This document shows positions 5,736 through 62,149 of a DNA stretch of 64,000 nucleotides, piece by piece. The notes below the pieces were generated by a model that saw only the letters and a list, made by a program, of their open reading frames with translations, did no database searches and was not told the origin of the DNA. Position 1 is the first letter of the stretch. Each line of letters begins with the position of its first letter. Source of the DNA: Eledone cirrhosa (taxonomy: Eukaryota); the NCBI GenBank assembly GCA_964016885.1, contig OZ024757.1, forward strand, positions 30,876,001 to 30,940,000, written 5' to 3'. Both the position numbers and the translations under genes were made by a program.

Positions 5736-5739
<4 letters not shown>

Positions 5740-6057
5740 AGGTGAGTTTTATTGTAGTACAATAAAGCAATGCAGATATCGGATAAGAAGCACTCTACAG
5801 TTTGTAGGACTGGAGTATACATAATATATAAGAACAAAAGATGGTTAAAAGAGTTCCATGTATTTTATTATGCGCATTTCAAAAACAAATATCATCATGC
5901 AATAATATTTGTGTTTTCATCAGATAAAACAGGAAGACATGATATGAAGGTTAAAAAACACTTGTGGATAGTTCAGTTTTAAATCAACATATGAGATATT
6001 TGTTTTTGAAATGCGCATAATAAAATACATGGAACTGTTTTAACCATCTTTTGTTCT

Positions 6058-6066
<9 letters not shown>
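5736..6066 (-). mobile_element. Hammerhead-containing short element with an inverted partial copy, inserted in (TA)n; paralogue of 27952-28373
   Basis: Minus-sense arm 5736-5993 is followed by an inverted piece 5995-6066. Both outer ends abut (TA)n. Collinear with the 27952 copy. Confidence 0.8.
5861..5930 (-). ncRNA. Type I hammerhead ribozyme
   Basis: Minus strand GUUUUAU-CUGAUGA-[stem II AAACACAAAUAUUAUU/GAUGAUAUUUGUUUUU]-GAAA-UGCGCA-UA^AUAAAAU. Stem III is palindromic (AUGCGCAU). Confidence 0.8.
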
Positions 6067-6132: not shown

Positions 6133-6164
<32 letters not shown>

Positions 6165-6264
6165 AATATAGACATAGAATATTCGAAAATATTCTGTATG
6201 TTTATAATAAACATTTTGAAGACCTAATCGCTATAGAATAGAATACGTCACGTATTACAATTAG

Positions 6265-8523
6265 ATTCTCGATAAAAGCAAGGGAAGTAATCTACGCGTT
6301 TCATTCTTGTTAGAAATCATCAGGACTACATATCCAGTGCTTTTATCGAGAATGACACAGCTAGAGACTTATAGAATACTTAGCTGTGTACAGGAACTGG
6401 TTTGAAAGAGCGGTTGCCGGTCCGGCAGAAATTAGAAATTGGAATAAATGCTCTGAAATAGCGATATATATGTGAATATAGACATAGAATATTCGAAAAT
6501 ATTCTGTATGTTTATAATAAACATTTTGAAGACCTAATCGCTATAGAATAGAATACGTCACGTATTACAATTAGATTCTCGATAAAAGCAAGGGAAGTAA
6601 TCTACGCGTTTCATTCTTGTTAGAAATCATCAGGACTACATATCCAGTGCTTTTATCGAGAATGACACAGCTAGAGACTTATAGAATACTTAGCTGTGTA
6701 CAGGAACTGGTTTGAAAGAGCGGTTGCCGGTCCGGCAGAAATTAGAAATTGGAATAAATGCTCTGAAATAGCGATATATATGTGAATATAGACATAGAAT
6801 ATTCGAAAATATTCTGTATGTTTATAATAAACATTTTGAAGACCTAATCGCTATAGAATAGAATACGTCACGTATTACAATTAGATTCTCGATAAAAGCA
6901 AGGGAAGTAATCTACGCGTTTCATTCTTGTTAGAAATCATCAGGACTACATATCCAGTGCTTTTATCGAGAATGACACAGCTAGAGACTTATAGAATACT
7001 TAGCTGTGTACAGGAACTGGTTTGAAAGAGCGGTTGCCGGTCCGGCAGAAATTAGAAATTGGAATAAATGCTCTGAAATAGCGATATATATGTGAATATA
7101 GACATAGAATATTCGAAAATATTCTGTATGTTTATAATAAACATTTTGAAGACCTAATCGCTATAGAATAGAATACGTCACGTATTACAATTAGATTCTC
7201 GATAAAAGCAAGGGAAGTAATCTACGCGTTTCATTCTTGTTAGAAATCATCAGGACTACATATCCAGTGCTTTTATCGAGAATGACACAGCTAGAGACTT
7301 ATAGAATACTTAGCTGTGTACAGGAACTGGTTTGAAAGAGCGGTTGCCGGTCCGGCAGAAATTAGAAATTGGAATAAATGCTCTGAAATAGCGATATATA
7401 TGTGAATATAGACATAGAATATTCGAAAATATTCTGTATGTTTATAATAAACATTTTGAAGACCTAATCGCTATAGAATAGAATACGTCACGTATTACAA
7501 TTAGATTCTCGATAAAAGCAAGGGAAGTAATCTACGCGTTTCATTCTTGTTAGAAATCATCAGGACTACATATCCAGTGCTTTTATCGAGAATGACACAG
7601 CTAGAGACTTATAGAATACTTAGCTGTGTACAGGAACTGGTTTGAAAGAGCGGTTGCCGGTCCGGCAGAAATTAGAAATTGGAATAAATGCTCTGAAATA
7701 GCGATATATATGTGAATATAGACATAGAATATTCGAAAATATTCTGTATGTTTATAATAAACATTTTGAAGACCTAATCGCTATAGAATAGAATACGTCA
7801 CGTATTACAATTAGATTCTCGATAAAAGCAAGGGAAGTAATCTACGCGTTTCATTCTTGTTAGAAATCATCAGGACTACATATCCAGTGCTTTTATCGAG
7901 AATGACACAGCTAGAGACTTATAGAATACTTAGCTGTGTACAGGAACTGGTTTGAAAGAGCGGTTGCCGGTCCGGCAGAAATTAGAAATTGGAATAAATG
8001 CTCTGAAATAGCGATATATATGTGAATATAGACATAGAATATTCGAAAATATTCTGTATGTTTATAATAAACATTTTGAAGACCTAATCGCTATAGAATA
8101 GAATACGTCACGTATTACAATTAGATTCTCGATAAAAGCAAGGGAAGTAATCTACGCGTTTCATTCTTGTTAGAAATCATCAGGACTACATATCCAGTGC
8201 TTTTATCGAGAATGACACAGCTAGAGACTTATAGAATACTTAGCTGTGTACAGGAACTGGTTTGAAAGAGCGGTTGCCGGTCCGGCAGAAATTAGAAATT
8301 GGAATAAATGCTCTGAAATAGCGATATATATGTGAATATAGACATAGAATATTCGAAAATATTCTGTATGTTTATAATAAACATTTTGAAGACCTAATCG
8401 CTATAGAATAGAATACGTCACGTATTACAATTAGATTCTCGATAAAAGCAAGGGAAGTAATCTACGCGTTTCATTCTTGTTAGAAATCATCAGGACTACA
8501 TATCCAGTGCTTTTATCGAGAAT
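6265..8523 (-). ncRNA. Eight type I hammerhead ribozymes (89-nt motifs starting at 6265, 6575, 6885, 7195, 7505, 7815, 8125, 8435)
   Basis: Each is the reverse complement of the motif described for 8558-8646. Confidence 0.85.
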
Positions 8524-8557
8524 GACACAGCTAGAGACTTATAGCTCTAGCTGTGTC

Positions 8558-9886
8558 ATTCTCGATAAAAGCACTGGATATGTAGTCCTGATGATTTCTA
8601 ACAAGAATGAAACGCGTAGATTACTTCCCTTGCTTTTATCGAGAATCTAATTGTAATACGTGACGTATTCTATTCTATAGCGATTAGGTCTTCAAAATGT
8701 TTATTATAAACATACAGAATATTTTCGAATATTCTATGTCTATATTCACATATATATCGCTATTTCAGAGCATTTATTCCAATTTCTAATTTCTGCCGGA
8801 CCGGCAACCGCTCTTTCAAACCAGTTCCTGTACACAGCTAAGTATTCTATAAGTCTCTAGCTGTGTCATTCTCGATAAAAGCACTGGATATGTAGTCCTG
8901 ATGATTTCTAACAAGAATGAAACGCGTAGATTACTTCCCTTGCTTTTATCGAGAATCTAATTGTAATACGTGACGTATTCTATTCTATAGCGATTAGGTC
9001 TTCAAAATGTTTATTATAAACATACAGAATATTTTCGAATATTCTATGTCTATATTCACATATATATCGCTATTTCAGAGCATTTATTCCAATTTCTAAT
9101 TTCTGCCGGACCGGCAACCGCTCTTTCAAACCAGTTCCTGTACACAGCTAAGTATTCTATAAGCCTCTAGCTGTGTCATTCTCGATAAAAGCACTGGATA
9201 TGTAGTCCTGATGATTTCTAACAAGAATGAAACGCGTAGATTACTTCCCTTGCTTTTATCGAGAATCTAATTGTAATACGTGACGTATTCTATTCTATAG
9301 CGATTAGGTCTTCAAAATGTTTATTATAAACATACAGAATATTTTCGAATATTCTATGTCTATATTCACATATATATCGCTATTTCAGAGCATTTATTCC
9401 AATTTCTAATTTCTGCCGGACCGGCAACCGCTCTTTCAAACCAGTTCCTGTACACAGCTAAGTATTCTATAAGTCTCTAGCTGTGTCATTCTCGATAAAA
9501 GCACTGGATATGTAGTCCTGATGATTTCTAACAAGAATGAAACGCGTAGATTACTTCCCTTGCTTTTATCGAGAATCTAATTGTAATACGTGACGTATTC
9601 TATTCTATAGCGATTAGGTCTTCAAAATGTTTATTATAAACATACAGAATATTTTCGAATATTCTATGTCTATATTCACATATATATCGCTATTTCAGAG
9701 CATTTATTCCAATTTCTAATTTCTGCCGGACCGGCAACCGCTCTTTCAAACCAGTTCCTGTACACAGCTAAGTATTCTATAAGTCTCTAGCTGTGTCATT
9801 CTCGATAAAAGCACTGGATATGTAGTCCTGATGATTTCTAACAAGAATGAAACGCGTAGATTACTTCCCTTGCTTTTATCGAGAAT
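8558..9886 (+). ncRNA. Five type I hammerhead ribozymes (89-nt motifs starting at 8558, 8868, 9178, 9488, 9798)
   Basis: First copy: stem I GUAGUC(8582-87)/GAUUAC(8619-24), core CUGAUGA(8588-94), stem II UUCU-AACA-AGAA, GAAA(8609-12), palindromic stem III ACGCGU, predicted cut GUA^ after 8618. A perfect 16-bp distal stem AUUCUCGAUAAAAGCA/UGCUUUUAUCGAGAAU closes it. Confidence 0.85.
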
Positions 9887-10021
9887 CTAATTGTAATACG
9901 TGACGTATTCTATTCTATAGCGATTAGGTCTTCAAAATGTTTATTATAAACATACAGAATATTTTCGAATATTCTATGTCTATATTCACATATATATCGC
10001 TATTTCAGAGCATTTATTCCA

Positions 10022-10068
<47 letters not shown>

Positions 10069-14305: not shown

Positions 14306-14475
14306 TGATGTGTTGTTTCCTTATATATATATATATATATATATATATCATCATCATCATCATCATCATCTTCGTTTAACGTCCATTTTCCATGCCAGCA
14401 TGGGTTAGACGGATATATATATATAATAAGATGATGCAAAGTAGTTTCAGATGTTAAAGTCTTTTATTGATAATA

Positions 14476-14538
14476 CTGTGATACACATTTCAATCATGAA
14501 AGTGCCCAACGATTCCGTGCCATGATCTCATCAGACAG
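14476..14538 (-). ncRNA. Type I hammerhead with a long stem II, decayed stem III
   Basis: CUGU-CUGAUGA-GAUCAUG…CAUGAUU-GAAA-UGUGUA-UC^ACAG. Stem III AUGUGUAU is two C>T changes from the palindrome AUGCGCAU. Confidence 0.6.
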
Positions 14539-14740
14539 CTTCTTACATAATAAGGTTATGTTCCCCGGGGCAATCCAAATTGAAATGACAAGGGAATGGA
14601 CAAAGATGACTTTGCTATCTTTTATCATCATTATCATCGTTTTATATGTATTTATATATATAAACTAGTGTTGCCGTCACTTGAATTTTTGTTGACATAT
14701 TCATTGCTATCTGTTTATAAATTGATTTTGTCATCACCAT

Positions 14741-16471: not shown

Positions 16472-16475
<4 letters not shown>

Positions 16476-16665
16476 TTAATATAGATGAGATTCTACAGGA
16501 CTAGAACTGTTTCATTCATTAGAAATCATCAGGATTCCTGATGATTTCTAATGAATGAAACAGTTCTAGTCCTGTAGAATCTCATCTATATTAAAACTGT
16601 TATACTCTGCTATGTATTGAGTACCTTACTTACTGTGGTTACCTCCGATTCAACCCGGAATAACG
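16472..16665 (+). mobile_element. Fold-back hammerhead insertion in (TA)n: perfect 63-bp-arm palindrome plus a 3' tail
   Basis: 16472-16534 is the exact reverse complement of 16536-16598. The tail 16599-16665 resembles 51020-51090. (TA)n lies on both sides. Confidence 0.9.
16532..16582 (+). ncRNA. Type I hammerhead ribozyme (mirror copy on the minus strand)
   Basis: GGAUUC-CUGAUGA-UUUCUAAUGAAU-GAAA-CAG[UUCUAGUC]CUG-UA^GAAUCU. Stem I is 6 bp and stem III is ACAG/CUGU. Predicted cut after 16576. Confidence 0.8.
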
Positions 16666-23701: not shown

Positions 23702-23962
23702 GAAAATAGAGAAATTAATGTGAACAAGAAGCCAACAGTATTTCATAATATATAAGTGACTATAACGTCAAGATGGAAAATATTTAACGTAAGATATGGG
23801 AAAATAATTCAAACTCAATTCAAAAAGAGTCAAGACAGAAATTTTATCCACAGATTTTGTGAAATCCAGGGAAAAAAACCAATAGAGTCTTAACTCAGAA
23901 TAAAATTAAGGTTAAATACTCATCCTTCAATTTGGAAAAAAAAAATATATATATATATACAC

Positions 23963-23993
<31 letters not shown>

Positions 23994-24023
23994 TATATAT
24001 ATATATACACATATATATATATA

Positions 24024-24070
<47 letters not shown>

Positions 24071-24093
24071 TATATATATATATATATACAAAC

Positions 24094-24126
<33 letters not shown>

Positions 24127-24134
24127 TATATATA

Positions 24135-24779
24135 TAAAATATAATATGTTGAGAAGGTAACACACCAGAGAGAGATATATAGTGCGTTATCAATAATACA
24201 GGGAAAAAAACCACCAGTGTATGGAATCTATAACCTATGAAAGGCAGACTATAGACACGATAATTAAAAATATAAATTAAAGCGTAAATAGATACCTCTA
24301 TAACTATATAACACACGTACAAATCCAAAGATATGTTTCACCAAAAAATTTGTTGAAAGAAATGGTCTAGTCTCGGTTCATCAGCGTGTGTAAGGCCATA
24401 CATTTCAGACAACACTAAGAGAATTTTACAATTGACTGTCCAGCTACACGTGGGAGAGAGAAGTCACAGCGTGTTTAAGGGCAGTGAACCAGTGGCCTCT
24501 GAGAGACGAACTGCTAGAAAGGGAAGCCCAAAGCCACTCAGAGAAGTGTGCTCAACCAAACAGAGATAGGAAAGGCTGTTATTAGGAGCAAAATATCACG
24601 ATAAATTAACGGAGGCATAGGCCGTCGTTTTTTTCCCTGTATTATTGATAACGCACTATATATCTCTCTCTGGTGTGTTACCTTCTCAACATATTATATT
24701 TTAAAGGGCTCAGGATCTCTTCCCCTTTGAGCACATTATTTACAGGGAATAATGACGGCCTATGCCTCCGTTAATTTAT

Positions 24780-24787
<8 letters not shown>
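24135..24787. mobile_element. Hammerhead-bearing fold-back insertion in (TA)n with circularly permuted arms
   Basis: 24135-24211 is the reverse complement of 24627-24703 (77 bp). 24593-24626 is the reverse complement of 24754-24787 (34 bp). (TA)n lies on both sides. Confidence 0.85.
24311..24391 (-). ncRNA. Type I hammerhead ribozyme with a full stem III
   Basis: ACACACG-CUGAUGA-ACCGAGA…UUUUGGU-GAAA-CAUAUC[UUUG]GAUUUG-UA^CGUGUGU. Stem I is a perfect 7 bp. Predicted GUA^ cut between 24318 and 24317. Confidence 0.8.
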
Positions 24788-24856
<69 letters not shown>

Positions 24857-25669: not shown

Positions 25670-27830
25670 TTTCAACCTCTACTTCATGAACACAATTGAC
25701 ATGCACAGCCAAGTTGGAAGTGATATCACAACTGGTGGGTACAGGGTCAGTCGGCTGGAATTTGTAGACAATATGGTGATACTTAACTCGTTAAAAGATG
25801 ATCTCAATATAGACAGCCAGGGTGGGTACAGGATCAGTCGGCTGGAATTTGAAGACGATATGGTGTTACTTAATTTGCTGGAAGCTGATCTCCAACATAA
25901 GCATCCAGGATGGGTACAGGGTCAGTCAGCTGGAATTTGTAGACGACATGGTGTTACTTAACTCATTGTAAGGTGATCTCCGATATACATAGCCAGGGTG
26001 GGTACAGGATCAGTCAGCTGGAATATGCAGACAACATGGTGTTACTTAATTCACTGAAAGTTGATCTCCAACATACGCAGCCAGGGTGGGTACAGGATCA
26101 GTCAGCTGGAATTTGCAGACGACATGGTGTTGCTTAACTCACTGGAAGTTGATCTCTGACATACACAGCCAAGTTGGAAGTGGTATCATGTCTGGTAGGT
26201 GTAGGATCAGTTGGCTGGAATTTGTAGACATCATCATCATCATCATCACCGTTTTAAGTCCGTTCTTCAACGCTAGCATGGGTTAGACGGGTTGTCCTGA
26301 TTCTGGCTTGATTTCTACAGCTGGATGCCCTTCCTAACACCAACCTCATTTACAGTGAGTGCTGGGTGCTTTTTTGACTGTGGCACCTCCACGACCACTT
26401 TACAGTGGAATGATAGGTACCCCAGTCCCTATCATCTCATTTCTACAGCTGAGTAAACTGGAGCAATGTTAGATAAAGTGTCTTGCTCAAGGAAACAACA
26501 CATCTCCCGGTCCGAGAATTGAACTCACAACCTTTCGATTGCAAGTCCAATGCTCTAACCACTAAGCCATGCGCAGACAATATGGTGTTACTTAACTCGT
26601 TAAAAGATGATCTCAATATACACAGCCAGGGTGGGTAGAGGATCAGTCGGCTGGAATTTGCAGACGACATGGTGTGACTTAACTCACTGGAAGTTGATCT
26701 CCGACATGCACAGGCAGGTTGGAAGTGGTATCATGTCTGGTGGGGTGTAGGATCAGCTGGCTGGAATTTGCAGACCTGGCGTTACTTAATTCATTAGAAG
26801 TTGATCTCTGACTTACACAGCCAGGTTGGAACTGGTATCATGTCTGGTGGGGTGTAGGATCAGCCGGCTGGAATTTGCAGACCTGGCGTTACTTAATTCA
26901 TTAGAAGTTGATCTCTGACTTACACAGCCAGGTTGGAACTGGTATCATGTCTGGTGGGGTGTAGGATCAGCCGGCTGGAATTTGCAGACCTGGCGTTACT
27001 TAATTCATTAGAAGTTGATCTCTGACTTACACAGCCAGGTTGGAACTGGTATCATGTCTGGTGGGGTGTAGGATCAGCCGGCTGGAATTTGCAGACCTGG
27101 CGTTACTTAATTCATTAGAAGGTGATCTCTGACTTACACTTGATAGGTTTGCTGCTGAGTGCTACATGGCAGCTATGAAAATCTGTTGTGAAGACTGACA
27201 CACTTGTCCTCTCAAGGAAGCCTGTGCAATGCACTCTACATGTTAGAGGAGTTACATTGAAGTAAGTGGAGACGTTCAAATATCTCAGGGTTGTTTCATG
27301 AGTGATGGAAAGCAGGACGTATTGCTGGATCTAGTGTAGTAATGTGTTAGCACCAGCACTTATTCATCAGAAGAAGGGAGGGAGGTGTAAAAGCCAAACT
27401 CGTTATCTTCAATGTGGTATTTGTGCCAACCCTTATCTATGGTCATGAATCTTGGGTAATGACTGAAAGAATATGATCGCGAATACAAGCCACTGAAACG
27501 GGGTCCCTCCAAATGGTCTTTGGAGTAACATTACTTGATAGAGTGCATAACTAGGAGATCAGAGAGTCACTCCAGGTAGAGCCCCTACTTTTCCAAATTG
27601 AGAGATCAGAACTCCGATACTATAGATATGTGGTCAGAATGTTTAAGGAAAGGATTGTTGGACAGATTTTAGGGGCAAAACTAACTGGCAGGAGACCCAG
27701 GAGTAGACTTCGAACAAGATGGTTGGATAACATCCATGAGGTTGGTTGGAGATAGTTGCTTCTAATAAGACCCTTGGGAAGATGTATTTGAGGGCTCTGC
27801 TCTCATGATCTTTTCAGGAATAAGTGAAGT
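25670..27830 (+). mobile_element. Degraded RTE-clade LINE RT/3' region with the catalytic (F)ADD segment tandemly amplified; interrupted by a SINE
   Basis: Repeated LEF(A/V/E)DDMVLLNSLE.DL units of ~59 and 107 bp. Downstream remnants such as PTLIYGHESWVMTE and RRPRSR carry stops and frameshifts. Confidence 0.75.
26231..26574 (-). mobile_element. Full-length composite tRNA-SINE with a probable AGACA target duplication
   Basis: Minus strand GCGCATGGCTTAGTGGTTAGAGC (A box) … GAGTTCAATTC (B box), core CCTTGAGCAAGACACTT, RTE-type tail and (GAT)n. AGACA occurs at 26226-30 and 26575-79. Confidence 0.85.
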
Positions 27831-27951: not shown

Positions 27952-28373
27952 GTAGGAGGTGAGTTTTATTGTAGCACAATAAAGCAATGCAAATATCGGA
28001 TAAGTAGCACTCTACAGTTTGTAGGACTGGAGTATAAATAATATAAGATCAAAAGATGGTTAAAAGAGTTCCAAGTATTTTATTATGTGCATTTCAAAAA
28101 CAAATATCATCATGGGATGATATCTGCGTTTTCATCAGATAAAATAGGGATACATGATATGAAGGTTAAAAAACACTTGTGAATAGTGAAGTTTTAAATC
28201 AACATATGTTGATTTAAAACTTAACTATTCACAAGTGTTTTTTAACCTTCATATCATGTATCCCTATTTTATCTGATGAAAACGCAGATATCATCCCATG
28301 ATGATATTTGTTTTTGAAATGCACATAATAAAATACTTGGAACTCTTTTAACCATCTTTTGATCTTATATTAT
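27952..28373. mobile_element. Fold-back hammerhead element: 168-bp-arm palindrome centred at 28205/28206 plus tail, in (TA)n
   Basis: 28038-28205 versus 28206-28373 are reverse complements with one mismatch and no spacer (AACAT|ATGTT). Paralogue of 5736-6066. Confidence 0.9.
28265..28335 (+). ncRNA. Type I hammerhead ribozyme (mirror copy at 28076-28146, minus strand)
   Basis: UAUUUUAU-CUGAUGA-AAACGCAGAUAUCAUC[CCAU]GAUGAUAUUUGUUUUU-GAAA-UGCACA-UA^AUAAAAUA. Stem I is a perfect 8 bp. Predicted cut after 28327. Confidence 0.8.
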
Positions 28374-33990: not shown

Positions 33991-35309
33991 CCATACACAC
34001 GTACGCATGTGTCTGTGTGTATATCATGACTCATACACTGTTCATTTTTCTGACATTTGTACATTATTCTATGTATTATACATGCACCTTTGATGAGTTG
34101 TAGTGTATCTGAGCACTGTACACAATAATTTTCATTATTGCATATATATATATATATATGTTTTTGGCAACCATTCATGATGTGGCTCAATGACAAATTA
34201 AATAAATAATCAACAATCAGAGCAATATACGATAAAGTATGTCCATAAAATCATTTGATAAAATATTAATGTATATATTTTATCAAATGATTCTATGGAC
34301 ATACTTTATTGTATATATATATATGAGATGGCAATATGATATATATATGTGTGTGTCAGTTGTGTGAATGGCACAACAACCTCTGTAGTGTTGGTGCTGT
34401 GATAAAACGCTATCCCTCCTCCCCCTAATCCTCCAGTAAACTCTGTAAAATGGTAGGTGAAAGGAAAGGCATCTAGTCATAGAAAATATGCCAAGCAAAG
34501 GCTCAGGTGGACTCTTCTGTTGTGTCAAAGACATATGACAACCTCCCTAGGCCTGCTGCTAACAGCTATGTTCATTCACCACTCTCCTACAGGAATACAA
34601 ATATGTTAATGACTAAAGTGAGAGAGCGGCATTTGTTCATATATTAGGAGAATATTTTAGGCATTCTATGTCATGTCACTGCCTTATAAATCTGTTTATA
34701 TTCACCGCCCTCATACAGAGATACAAATATTTTAATGACTAAAGCGGAGAGGCCTTTGTTCACATGATTAGGAGAAGATTTTAGGCATTCTATCTGTCAT
34801 TTCACTGCCTTATAAATATGTGTATATATTAGCTCCAAATATGAGAAGAGAAGAGAGAGCGACATATATTTATTTGTATTGAAATCGTTGAGAAAGTTTT
34901 GTGGATATTTTTAATAAAACCGTATTAACTAATGTGAGAAATAAATAAAAATTGCAAAACATTGCTTTTTATATTGTTGTGATCAATAAAAATTATTTTA
35001 TCGCTTTCAAAACATGATAAATGATAGAAGAAAGAAAGAAATATGGGAAAGATTTTTCAAAAATATTAAAAAAGTAATGCTGAGAAATGGATGATGGAAA
35101 TTGTTGTGAATAATGGAACATTGAGTCAAAGAAGGAAGAAAAAAAGTGGAAATGTTTCTGTATGTGAGTGTGTGTGTGTAAATGTGTATGTATGTATATA
35201 TATATATGTGTGTGTATGTGTACACATGTGTATGTGTGTGTGTATGTATGTATATATATATATATGTGTGTGTATGTGTATATATATATGTGCTTTATGT
35301 GTGCACGTG

Positions 35310-38672: not shown

Positions 38673-38960
38673 GGCGCATGGCTTAGTGGTTAGAGCATTA
38701 GGCTTGCAATCAAAAGGTTGTGAGTTCAATTCTCGGATCGGGTGATGTGTTGTTTCCTTGAGCAAGACACTTTATTTCACGTTGCTCCAGTATACTCAGC
38801 TGAAAATGAGTACCAGCAATAGCTGGAGGTTTAACCCTGCGATGGACTGGCGTTCTATCCAGGGGGGAGTCTTGTACTCTCAGTCGCTTCGCGCCATGAT
38901 ACCGGGATAAGCACCGGCCAAATGAACCTTCTGTCTTAAGACAGGCTTTAGACTTTAGGC
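38673..38960 (+). mobile_element. tRNA-derived SINE with a CORE-like block and a non-RTE 3' region
   Basis: A box TGGCTTAGTGG, B box GAGTTCAATTC, CCTTGAGCAAGACACTT, then AACCCTGCGATGGACTGGCG…CCAGGG. Confidence 0.85.
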
Positions 38961-38994
<34 letters not shown>

Positions 38995-39830
38995 GTAGAT
39001 ATATATATATATATATATAGGTACATAGGGTGGTACGTTATAGGTAATCAGGTTAGAGTTTGTGAGTACTCTGCGTCGTGGATAGTTTTAACGTACGGCT
39101 TTGTTTAACTCAACAAGATGTTTCCATAGTTAGGCAGCAAGTTCGCAGTAATTCCTATGGAGGTTACACTTGGAGTAATAATAGTGAGAGTATGAAGAGT
39201 AACATGGTTGGCTTTACAACAAGGGGCTTTATTGTACAGCGAACCTTGTTACTCTTCATTCTTTCACTATATATATATATATATATATATATACAGAGTA
39301 AAAAGCAAGTAAGCTAATCAGGAGGAGAGAGAAGTGATTAGTTATGCAGCTTACTAGCCAGTAGAGAGAAGGCTAGTGTGCTCAATACATATAGGTTGTT
39401 AGACTAGTGAGCTATGTGATTAGATGTAAAGAGAGTTAGTTTAACAATCGTATAATAAGCAGAGCAAAAAATCATATTTAAAATGCTGGAGAGAACAACA
39501 AAGATTTATGAATACATATATATTTAATGGCTGACAAGTTGTTTCAAATACTGCACAGTAAGAATGGACATTGAAATGGCAAGAGCTCAGCTCTATATAA
39601 TATAGTCATACTCTACTACCACAAGTATTGAGTACTCTGTTGAGTAATGCCCTAACAAGTTTTAAATTGGTTCTATCCTGATTTATATATATATATATAT
39701 ATATATAATGCACACACTCATGTACATATACTGACATAAAGTATAGATATTTAAATTACAGAACAGCTGCCTGTAGAGATGACAAGAAATTCTAGTAACC
39801 CAGTGAATGCTTAGTTTGAAGAAATATATT

Positions 39831-52154: not shown

Positions 52155-52345
52155 AGTAGTTCCACAACAGTTAGTTCACCATACCGAGAACTATTGTTTC
52201 ACCTTATTCGGATCAGACCCGTATAAGGTGAAACAATTGTTCTCAGTATGGTGAACTAACTGGTGTGGAACTACTACTACCAAACTCGTCCCATGGACCG
52301 AGTGCTCTACTACTATGGATATAACTCTCCAGTGTTCTACCTTAT
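52155..52345 (+). mobile_element. Fold-back insertion in (TA)n: imperfect ~57-bp-arm palindrome carrying only the 3' half of a hammerhead
   Basis: 52155-52211 versus ~52219-52275 are reverse complements with about 4 mismatches. The arms contain GAAA-CAAUUG-UU but no CUGANGA. Confidence 0.65.
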
Positions 52346-52697: not shown

Positions 52698-53043
52698 GGC
52701 ACATGGCTTAGTGGTTAGAGCATTGGCCTTGTAATCGAAAGGTTGTGAGTTCAATTCTCAGACTGGGTGATGTGCTGTTTCCTTGAGCAAGACACTTTAT
52801 TTCACATAGCTCCAGTTTACTCAGCTGTAGAAATGAGATGATAGAGTCTGGGGTCCCTATCATTCCACTGCAAAGCGGTTGAGGAGGTGCCACGGCAAAA
52901 AAAGCACCCAGCACTCACTGTAAATGAGCTTGGTGTTAGGAAGGGCATCCAGCTGTAGAAATCAAGCCCGAATCAGGACAACCTGTCCCACCCTTGCAAG
53001 CAGGGAAAAGCGGACGTAAAATGAAATGATGAATGATGATGAT
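52698..53043 (+). mobile_element. Full-length composite tRNA-SINE (tRNA head, CORE-like block, RTE-type tail)
   Basis: A/B boxes, CCTTGAGCAAGACACTT, and a 3' end GTCCCACCCTTGCAAGCAGGGAAAAGCGGACGTAAAATGA matching the RTE 3' end at 45757-45795. Confidence 0.88.
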
Positions 53044-59485: not shown

Positions 59486-59551
59486 TATATGTATATATAT
59501 ATATATACACACACATATATATATATATGTATACATATAGGCACACACACT

Positions 59552-59587
<36 letters not shown>

Positions 59588-59591
59588 TATA

Positions 59592-59674
<83 letters not shown>

Positions 59675-59768
59675 ATATATATATACACACACATATATAT
59701 GTGTATGTCTATATATATACACACACATATATGTGTATGTCTATATATATACACACACATGTGTCTGT

Positions 59769-60908
59769 AGGGCTATACAAGCCATGTATAAAGAAACAGT
59801 CAGCAAGGTTAGAATTAACAACGAATATAGTGAAGAGTTTAGCGTAAAAGTTGGTGTCCATCAGGGCTCTGTTCTCAGCCCACTACTATTTATTATTGCC
59901 CTTCAGGCTATAACAGAGGAGTTCAAGACAGGCTGCCCATGGGAACTCCTATACGCAGACGACCTGACACTCATAGCGGAATCAATGGCCGAGCTAGAGA
60001 AGAAATTCCAAACATGGAAGCACGGCCTAGAGTCAAAAGGACTTAAAATTAACCTGGCTAAGACCAAAGTACTAGTTTGTAGGAAAGAAAACAAGGCGGC
60101 GGTCCCTTCTGGGAAATGGTCGTGCTCGGTGTGTAGGAAAGGCGTAGGTAGAAACTCCATTTTATGTCCTAAATGCAAAGTATGGGTGCATAAAAGATGT
60201 AGTGGGATCACAGGTAAGCTAACTAAGAACATAGATTTTACATGTGGCCGGTGCTCTGGTGCAATAAGTAGCAGCAAGTGCCCACAAAATACTAGCTCTT
60301 TCAATTGCGCAGAGGGTTCTATAGAAATAGTGGACAGCTTCCGTTACCTGGGCGATAAAATCAGCAGTGGGGGAGGGTGCTCTGAAAGTACTGTAGCTAG
60401 AGTCAGAACTGGTTGGAAAAAGTTCAGAGAGCTTATACCACTATTAGCTGCTAAAGGGTTCTCACTAAAAATGAAAGGCAGGTTGTACGATGCCTGCATA
60501 CGAACAGCAATGCTGCATGGCAGTGAGACCTGGGCATTGTGTGCAGAGGATATACGCAGACTAGAGAGGAACGAAGCTTGCATGCTCCGCTGGATGTGTA
60601 ACAGTAATATACGTGAACGGCAAAGCATAAACGAACTAAGGAAAAAATTAGAGATAAGAGGGATCAGATGTTGTTTACTCGAGAGAAGGCTACGTTGGTA
60701 TGGACACGTGATGCGCATGAAAGTCGATAGCTGTATAACAAAGTGCAGGGCAATAAAGATAGACGGTAGTCACGGAATAGGCAGACCTAGAAAAACCTGG
60801 GACGAGCTGATAAACTCCGACATCACACACTTACACCTCTCCAAGACAATGTCACTGGACCGAGACCTTTGGCGGTACTCAGTAACAGAGAAGACCCGCC
60901 TTACCTAA
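59769..60908 (+). CDS. 5'-truncated RTE-clade LINE reverse transcriptase ORF (RT motifs, Cys/His finger, C-terminal domain), uninterrupted
   Basis: [13 protein letters not shown] and LLYADDL RT motifs; CSVC…CPKC…HKRC…CGRC PHD-like finger; FRYLG; [10 protein letters not shown]; GRPRKTW. The upstream part of ORF 59595 is microsatellite. Confidence 0.92.
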
Positions 60909-61506: not shown

Positions 61507-61941
61507 ATGTTTGTCTGTATGTGTGTATATGTGTCTGTGCGTATGCGTGTCTGTGTGTGTGTGTATGTATGTGTGTCTGTGTCTCTGTATGTATACGTAT
61601 GGCATGTCTCTGGTGTTAAGACTGGGAAGACCACAAATCAGAATAGCAATCTATGCATGGTGAGATGCAGAGTTGGTATGTTAACATATATACACATATG
61701 TATGTGTGTATATATATATATATATGTATTATATATATGTATATATATATTATATATATGTATTATATATATATGTATATATTTATATGTATATATATAT
61801 ATATATGTATATATTTATATGTATATATATATATATATATATGTATATATTTATATGTATATATATATATATATATATGTCCCAAGGCTCTAATACCATC
61901 AACACTATAAACACAGAGCTGGCATATCTAAGAACCGACTA

Positions 61942-61997
61942 ACTGCCTGATGAGGTCATAGCCATTCAATGGCTATCATCGAAATATATATAGTAGT
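61942..61997 (+). ncRNA. Minimal type I hammerhead (family of 24899-24951)
   Basis: ACUGC-CUGAUGA-GGUCAUAGCCA[UUCAA]UGGCUAUCAUC-GAAA-UAUAUA-UA^GUAGU, followed by AAUAAA. It sits in a ~160-bp insert in (TA)n. Confidence 0.8.
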
Positions 61998-62042
61998 AAA
62001 TAAATGATTATGAGTTCATGCAATTGAGTTATGTTTCGTCAC

Positions 62043-62149
<107 letters not shown>

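Follow-up and report, generated by a model that had tools for sequence, protein, structure and literature searches.

A 542-nt hammerhead repeat inserted head to head within a (TA)n microsatellite

The 653-nt element described here is probably a recent single copy of a multi-copy, non-coding, 542-nt hammerhead repeat, likely inserted into a (TA)n microsatellite by the reverse transcriptase (RT) and endonuclease of a Penelope-like element (PLE) acting in trans. The family is likely a new member of the known kind of animal retrozymes, laid down in the known PLE pattern. As a lone genomic copy, the insertion is the ordinary outcome of a known process. The available literature leaves open how tandem and inverted PLE insertions are built, what the hammerhead of PLEs does and which enzyme moves animal retrozymes (PMC8557442, PMC7229834, 10.64898/2026.07.22.740005). 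Here the unit is short, and the inverted arm wraps almost once round it and crosses an uncut ribozyme site, which constrains the template to one that is uncut and longer than a single unit. Throughout, "the window" refers to the whole 64-kb stretch of DNA that was analysed.

Layout of the element and closed order of the 542-nt unit

The element consists of a long inverted arm and a short direct arm joined head to head (Table 1). Unit positions are counted from the start of segment B, and the length of the unit is given by the inverted arm plus the linker (492 + 50 = 542 nt). The initial annotation described a minus-sense arm running from 24626 to 24135 in the order B, hammerhead, A, and a plus-sense arm made of A, a linker and B in lengths of 77, 50 and 34 nt. 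The comparison of the sequence with its own reverse complement reproduces both arms exactly: the reverse complement of 24135-24626 begins with a 34-nt exact copy of B and ends with a 77-nt exact copy of A, and the plus-sense arm is an exact sequence match to the order given. In a self-BLAST, A is recovered with an E value of 4e-37, and B plus the adjoining stem with an E value of 2e-15.

Table 1. Features of the element and of its flanking microsatellites, in window coordinates
Feature	Position	Strand	Remarks
Left target microsatellite	23945..24134	.	(TA)n with CA interruptions
Inverted arm	24135..24626	-	492 nt = unit 1-492 (B, body, hammerhead, A); left (TA)n adjoins its sense 3' end
Segment A, copy 1	24135..24211	-	77 nt, identical to copy 2
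Type I hammerhead motif (predicted)	24311..24391	-	Descriptor and folding
Predicted self-cleavage site	24317..24318	-	After GUA, unit 309/310; uncut within the inverted arm
Segment B, copy 1	24593..24626	-	34 nt, followed by body as in other family copies
Head-to-head junction	24627..24629	.	3-nt microhomology at the base of the predicted A/linker stem
Direct arm	24627..24787	+	161 nt = unit 416-542, then 1-34; right (AT)n adjoins its sense 3' end
Segment A, copy 2	24627..24703	+	77 nt
End offset	24704..24787	+	84 nt: linker 24704-24753 (50 nt) and B 24754-24787 (34 nt); position equivalent to the PLE "tail"
Right target microsatellite	24788..24850	.	Pure (AT)n, 33.5 units counted from 24784

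Both outer ends of the element are sense 3' ends that lie on (TA)n, and in unit coordinates they are 84 nt apart, so that the copy as a whole spans 1.06 units. Since the target is itself (TA)n, any target-site duplication is unreadable within the microsatellite. The bases at 24627-24629 fit both arms, and the boundary between the arms is therefore uncertain by 3 nt. A begins with bases complementary to those at the linker's end; in the predicted fold of the unit, positions 422-430 pair with probabilities of 0.72-1.0. A self-comparison of the 64-kb window showed no second copy of the 542-nt repeat.

This complementarity would allow self-priming to recopy B, and for that reason a single copy is insufficient to establish a circular order. 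Other copies of the family were found by aligning four public sequencing runs of related organisms, out of 16 listed, to the element: X1 (organism A), X4 (organism B), X6 (organism C) and X14. None of the runs listed is on record as RNA, and of eight listed runs with a small or zero share X6 alone was used. A 235-nt contig of X6 (record 17) runs in one direction through unit 470-539, 540-542 and then 1-161, with 70 and 164 letters on either side of the joint and 4 differences. A second X6 contig (record 15) reads from linker to B and on into 30 letters resembling the start of the body. Record 11 of X4 holds B, linker and A and continues into the body upstream of A for 25 letters, fewer than the 31-letter bar set for bridging. 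In X1, a joint from unit position 538 to 67 keeps the closed order with a loss of 70 nt. Most of the records that show the closure belong to organisms B and C, rather than to the organism label with the largest share of matching words. The succession linker-B-body is thus native to the family, whose order closes on itself at about 542 nt. The initial annotation had named two observations that would speak against its reading, namely that A, linker and B are not contiguous elsewhere in the family and that the pattern arose by local inversion after insertion. The X6 contig of record 17, from another organism, carries the three in direct order with no fold-back, and other copies either lack this inversion or are inverted at other places.

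The family is multi-copy, with 1909 contigs in X1 and 2479 reads in X14, these being counts of records and not copy numbers. The likeness of the records ranges from 99+ to under 90. Among the aligned records there is no tandem dimer, and none of them spans more than one unit. At about seven sites almost all of the X1 depth differs from the window copy, which suggests from sequence comparison that this copy is young and differs by about 1% from the common form of the family. Position 24753 is C in nearly all records and T in the window; hence the linker of the family ends in three bases that also fit 24627-24629, giving a perfect 3-nt microhomology (joint 24629/24750). Among the 11 joints listed, four turn from antisense to sense at places other than the one in the window, at unit 423>463, 362>418 and 284>546 in X1 and at 296>519 in X6. 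The three X1 joints could be deletion alleles of the same locus; the X6 joint cannot be. Peaks of read ends in X14 were considered as possible ends of the element and were rejected, all six of those listed falling on AATT, where the library had been cut.

The reconstructed 542-nt circle has a GC content of 39% and is 58% paired. Its folding z score is -2.2 (40 shuffles), as against -4.8 for the 310-bp repeat unit found elsewhere in the window, making it only moderately structured. The longest ATG-initiated ORF of the unit has 26 codons, and a Pfam scan of the single complex stop-free frame of the element gave no match. The two units share no BLAST similarity at E<=10, in keeping with the proposal of the initial annotation that they represent unrelated families. 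Exact-pattern matches at four metagenome and two viral loci were put down to chance, as none of the six extends past the 18-19-nt pattern and none carries a hammerhead.

The predicted hammerhead

The motif on the minus strand has an intact core (CUGAUGA / GAAA / GUA). Stem I is made of seven Watson-Crick pairs, as the initial annotation stated; the "full stem III" of that description has six of its seven positions paired and one U-U mismatch. Stem II has three Watson-Crick pairs, or seven when G-U pairs are counted, and is capped by a long loop. No descriptor match appeared in 3000 dinucleotide shuffles of the 653-nt element. Over the whole window the descriptor finds 20 real matches, compared with a mean of 0.0-0.02 in 60 shuffles. 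Looser settings of the descriptor give non-zero counts in shuffled sequence, showing that the control works. The hammerhead motif in the 542-nt unit is not a product of chance.

The Rfam models recognise no hammerhead at the element, either at the gathering threshold or at E<=10. At the latter value there are 21 matches around the element, none of which is a ribozyme, and AT repeats lie behind nearly all of them. In folding predictions the catalytic fold lies 1.0 kcal/mol above the minimum, both for the motif alone and in the circle; the predicted pairing probability in the circle is 0.02 for stem II, and that of stem I is 0.76-0.91. Stem II closes with an A-U pair instead of the usual G-C. 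The computed fold energy, the low probability of stem II and the silence of Rfam would together count against easy self-cleavage.

Diverged subfamilies with loose ends at 24331 are present in X1 (16 contigs) and X14 (173 reads). They have G at the site of the U-U mismatch in stem III and C at the base of stem II. Stems II and III of these subfamilies look closer to canonical pairing as judged from one strand of each. Among the 40 variable sites listed, of 138, five are in loop II and none is in the core or stems, a sample that is small and selected. By analogy with other animal retrozymes, the hammerhead is predicted to cut tandem transcripts into 542-nt monomers that could circularise.

Insertion pattern, competing explanations and template

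The layout is like that of endonuclease-bearing PLEs (PMC3846280, PMC8557442, PMC11167929) in having a copy inverted head to head, repeats in inverted orientation at its two ends, an extension confined to one end, an AT-rich or (TA)n target and a hammerhead upstream of the end. Published PLE insertions are described as containing partial tandems, an inverted 5'-truncated copy and a tail of 30-40 bp at one end, with a bias for (TA)n, and the mechanism behind them is there called undefined (Craig et al., 10.1101/2021.04.23.441226, PMC8557442). Head-to-head inversions, palindromes at the junctions and joins at microhomologies have likewise been reported (Arkhipova et al. 2013, PMC3846280). A purified PLE protein has been shown to cut both strands of AT-rich DNA and to extend them from two internal start sites, which bound the tail (Frangieh et al. 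2024, PMC11167929).

There are also differences. The 542-nt unit lacks the RT or GIY-YIG ORF of endonuclease-bearing PLEs. Its end offset of 84 nt is more than twice the length of the published tails (30-40 bp, PMC8557442), and five other segments of the window have offsets of 67-89 nt; the 39-nt offset of the 310-bp array is, by contrast, like the published ones. Unlike in the usual PLE ends, the tail end (B) recurs where the inverted arm begins, owing to the shortness of the unit. The non-coding Chlamys derivatives such as MRC1 (PMC8557442) are a further likeness, elements of the MRC1 kind being PLE parasites that give rise to pLTRs and to multicopy insertions arranged head to tail. Those derivatives are green-algal and their similarity to an autonomous partner is shown in that paper, which describes most Chlamys elements as being without hammerheads.

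The unit resembles metazoan non-LTR retrozymes (PMC7229834; 10.64898/2026.07.22.740005) in being non-coding and low in GC (39%), in having one type I hammerhead, a closed head-to-tail order and many copies, and in the movement by PLEs proposed for it. Retrozyme circles have been given as 170-400 nt, with PLEs named as candidate partners (Cervera and de la Pena 2020, PMC7229834), and a more recent study ties retrozymes to pLTRs by co-occurrence and phylogeny and gives units of 51-972 bp (Li, Clavereau and Pollet 2026, bioRxiv 10.64898/2026.07.22.740005). At 542 nt the unit exceeds the former range (PMC7229834) and falls within the latter (10.64898/2026.07.22.740005). It is unlike these retrozymes in its long loop II and its seven-position stem III, and in that no dimer was seen among the aligned records. 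Inverted, tailed insertions are not described in the available text of either paper (PMC7229834; 10.64898/2026.07.22.740005), and a term search of the available text of the second (10.64898/2026.07.22.740005) found no use of the word "tail". An earlier description of such retrozyme insertions was not found in the literature searched, although supplements or subscription papers may hold one. Plant LTR retrozymes are different, with type III hammerheads and paired LTRs, whereas the unit has a single type I motif and no paired direct LTRs.

The insertion could have been formed as follows. A PLE endonuclease would nick both strands of the AT tract, and each 3'-OH would prime reverse transcription, the two start sites being 84 nt apart at unit positions 492 and 34/576. 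The first cDNA would stop where A begins, at a length of 161 nt. The second would run for 492 nt or more, past the uncut hammerhead site, to the border of B and the linker. The 3' end of the first cDNA would then anneal to the second by way of the complementary bases that begin A and end the linker, and fill-in would fix the head-to-head product.

It is unlikely that the element is instead the stump of an autonomous PLE, that is, a pLTR with a tail and an inverted truncated partner, with the 542-nt closure belonging to a minor, internally deleted derivative. The layout matches PLE ends, four other elements in the window resemble plain pLTR stumps with tails, and 73/100 of the aligned X14 sequence continues in a manner unlike the element. 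However, B runs into the same body both in the window copy and in a pair of X6 contigs, the unit is without an ATG ORF of over 26 codons, and every one of the 30 bins has depth in X1 and in X14; the read ends of X14, all six of those listed, are library cuts at AATT and give no help to a stump.

Still less probable is the insertion of a retrozyme-type repeat by a LINE of the L1 or RTE type. Classical twin priming by such an element produces an inverted 5' part with microhomology, so that both of these features are expected under this reading too, and LINE-type RT fragments are present in the window. On the other hand, the element does not carry its own 3' tail of poly(A) or simple repeat and contains a 77-nt duplication at the inversion, while the paired (TA)n ends and the fixed-looking offsets, which recur in several families, fit the descriptions of PLEs.

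It is very improbable that a linear element, with no circular order, primed its own copying on the A/linker hairpin and so recopied B. The junction does lie at the foot of the stem formed by the beginning of A and the linker's end, and self-priming has been put forward in the case of PLE palindromes (PMC3846280). This possibility is largely refuted by X6 records 17 and 15, in which linker, B and body are contiguous in direct orientation. The contigs that carry linker-B-body and body-A-linker-B in direct order tell equally against a local inversion after insertion. Such an inversion, or a chimera of assembly or amplification, is hardly credible even though fold-backs are a known library artefact and no aligned record covers the entire element, as duplication of both A and B is not expected from a simple inversion, the outer ends both stop cleanly on (TA)n, and seven more segments of the window follow the same plan in different sequences.

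Taking insertion by PLE machinery as the preferred reading, the form of the template can be considered. The long arm cannot have been copied from a monomer cut at 309/310, which leaves as the template either a ligated circle or a transcript that was uncut and no shorter than 1.06 units. The initial annotation regarded the insertion as the direct trace of a 542-nt circle or head-to-tail multimer. The circular closure that this supposes is borne out by the family order, but "direct trace" of a circle says too much, since the same product results from a linear, uncleaved transcript 1.06 units or more in length. RNA circles have been proposed as templates for copying of more than one unit (Cervera and de la Pena 2014, PMC4209133), a model restated in a review (PMC7761336). 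The main substrate of the purified PLE protein is, in the published account, unprocessed RNA, and mutants of the hammerhead leave insertion unaffected (Frangieh et al. 2024, PMC11167929). A hammerhead competent as a monomer would favour a circle, and the in vitro behaviour of the PLE protein, if it extends to this family, would favour an uncut transcript, as would the weak stem II. A ligated RNA circle and an uncleaved tandem or partial-tandem transcript are evenly balanced.

The more specific proposal, that the insertion records the copying of a covalently closed 542-nt hammerhead RNA, with a PLE dimer starting reverse transcription at two fixed sites on both (TA)n strands, is offered tentatively and is somewhat doubtful as a whole. 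If it is true, the insertion, together with the 310-bp array, would be mechanism-level evidence for PLE machinery moving retrozyme circles, where the case for such a link has hitherto been made from co-occurrence and sequence kinship; it would also reveal tails of 67-89 nt in a PLE lineage. With two candidate start sites and a junction stem at hand, a test of circular versus linear templates using the purified PLE protein is well defined.

Inverted ends and other repeats in the window

Inverted ends, with or without an offset, are present in 8 of the 101 segments between (TA)n tracts in the window and in none of the segments of any of 10 shuffled sets. A hammerhead core is found in five of the eight. 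One of the eight is the centre of the 310-bp array, the outer ends of which differ by 39 nt; of the others, apart from the element itself, five have end offsets of 67-89 nt and one, a doubtful case, has 164 nt. The fold-back recurs in the window and in the family. It corresponds, as the initial annotation did not recognise, to the known PLE architecture of an inverted pLTR plus tail, which is common in the window, and the structure is consequently less unusual than the initial annotation held.

The 310-bp hammerhead array occupies 6154-10025 and has 12.5 near-identical units, 7.7 on the minus strand and 4.8 on the plus strand, which meet head to head in a hairpin at 8544/8545. Both of its ends are on (TA)n, and the units are identical except at one polymorphic site. 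The array shares with the 542-nt copy the head-to-head plan in (TA)n, the hairpin junction and the end offset. It differs in its 12.5 units, in having a minimal stem III and in the 39-nt length of the offset. As evidence of multimer or rolling-circle copying, the array is better than the 542-nt copy.

One hammerhead-bearing family is represented twice, at 27952-28370 and 5738-6064, by copies with 92% likeness over 256 nt. These share an outer end and have a tail of about 86-89 nt, but their inversion centres differ. At 16473-16665, a hammerhead core forms the centre of a 125-nt palindrome that has a tail of 68 nt; the stem II of this core is similar to the one in the 310-bp unit. Three more segments with inverted ends, at 52155-52342, 34160-34311 and 39020-39267, have offsets of 67, 70 and 164 (doubtful) nt, and no hammerhead core was found in them. 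Single hammerhead-like motifs stand beside (TA)n at about 14427-14600 (minus strand) and at 61880-62044 (plus strand), with no inversion detected.

The telomerase-like RT and GIY-YIG ORF of an autonomous PLE is absent from the element, and no GIY-YIG or PLE ORF was found in the window among the 59 of 86 complex ORFs that were scanned; two of these have domain matches, both LINE-type. The RT ORF at 59541-60908 was considered as a PLE partner and rejected, its RVT_1 match being interrupted by a PHD finger (E values of 7.6e-16 and 2.1e-06) with no GIY-YIG match. It is presumably a LINE-type fragment. The minus-strand ORF at 1753-2151 has a zf-RVT match below the curated cut-off and is probably another LINE fragment. 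An octopus repeat annotation (PMC13282606) reports active Penelope families, with ribozymes unmentioned in its available text.

The window is AT-rich eukaryotic DNA, presumably animal and perhaps cephalopod-like, and is dense in (TA)n, (CA)n and (CAT)n tracts. Over its whole length, Rfam at the gathering threshold gives three tRNA-like matches and no hammerhead. The tRNA-like sequences, at 26512-26569, 38679-38736 and 52702-52765, head a dispersed repeat that is ~320 nt long, has (CAT)n ends and occurs in several copies in the window; it is probably a SINE. Related minisatellites of 88 bp and 107 bp, at 25734-26171 and 26639-27139, lie on either side of one of the SINE-like copies.
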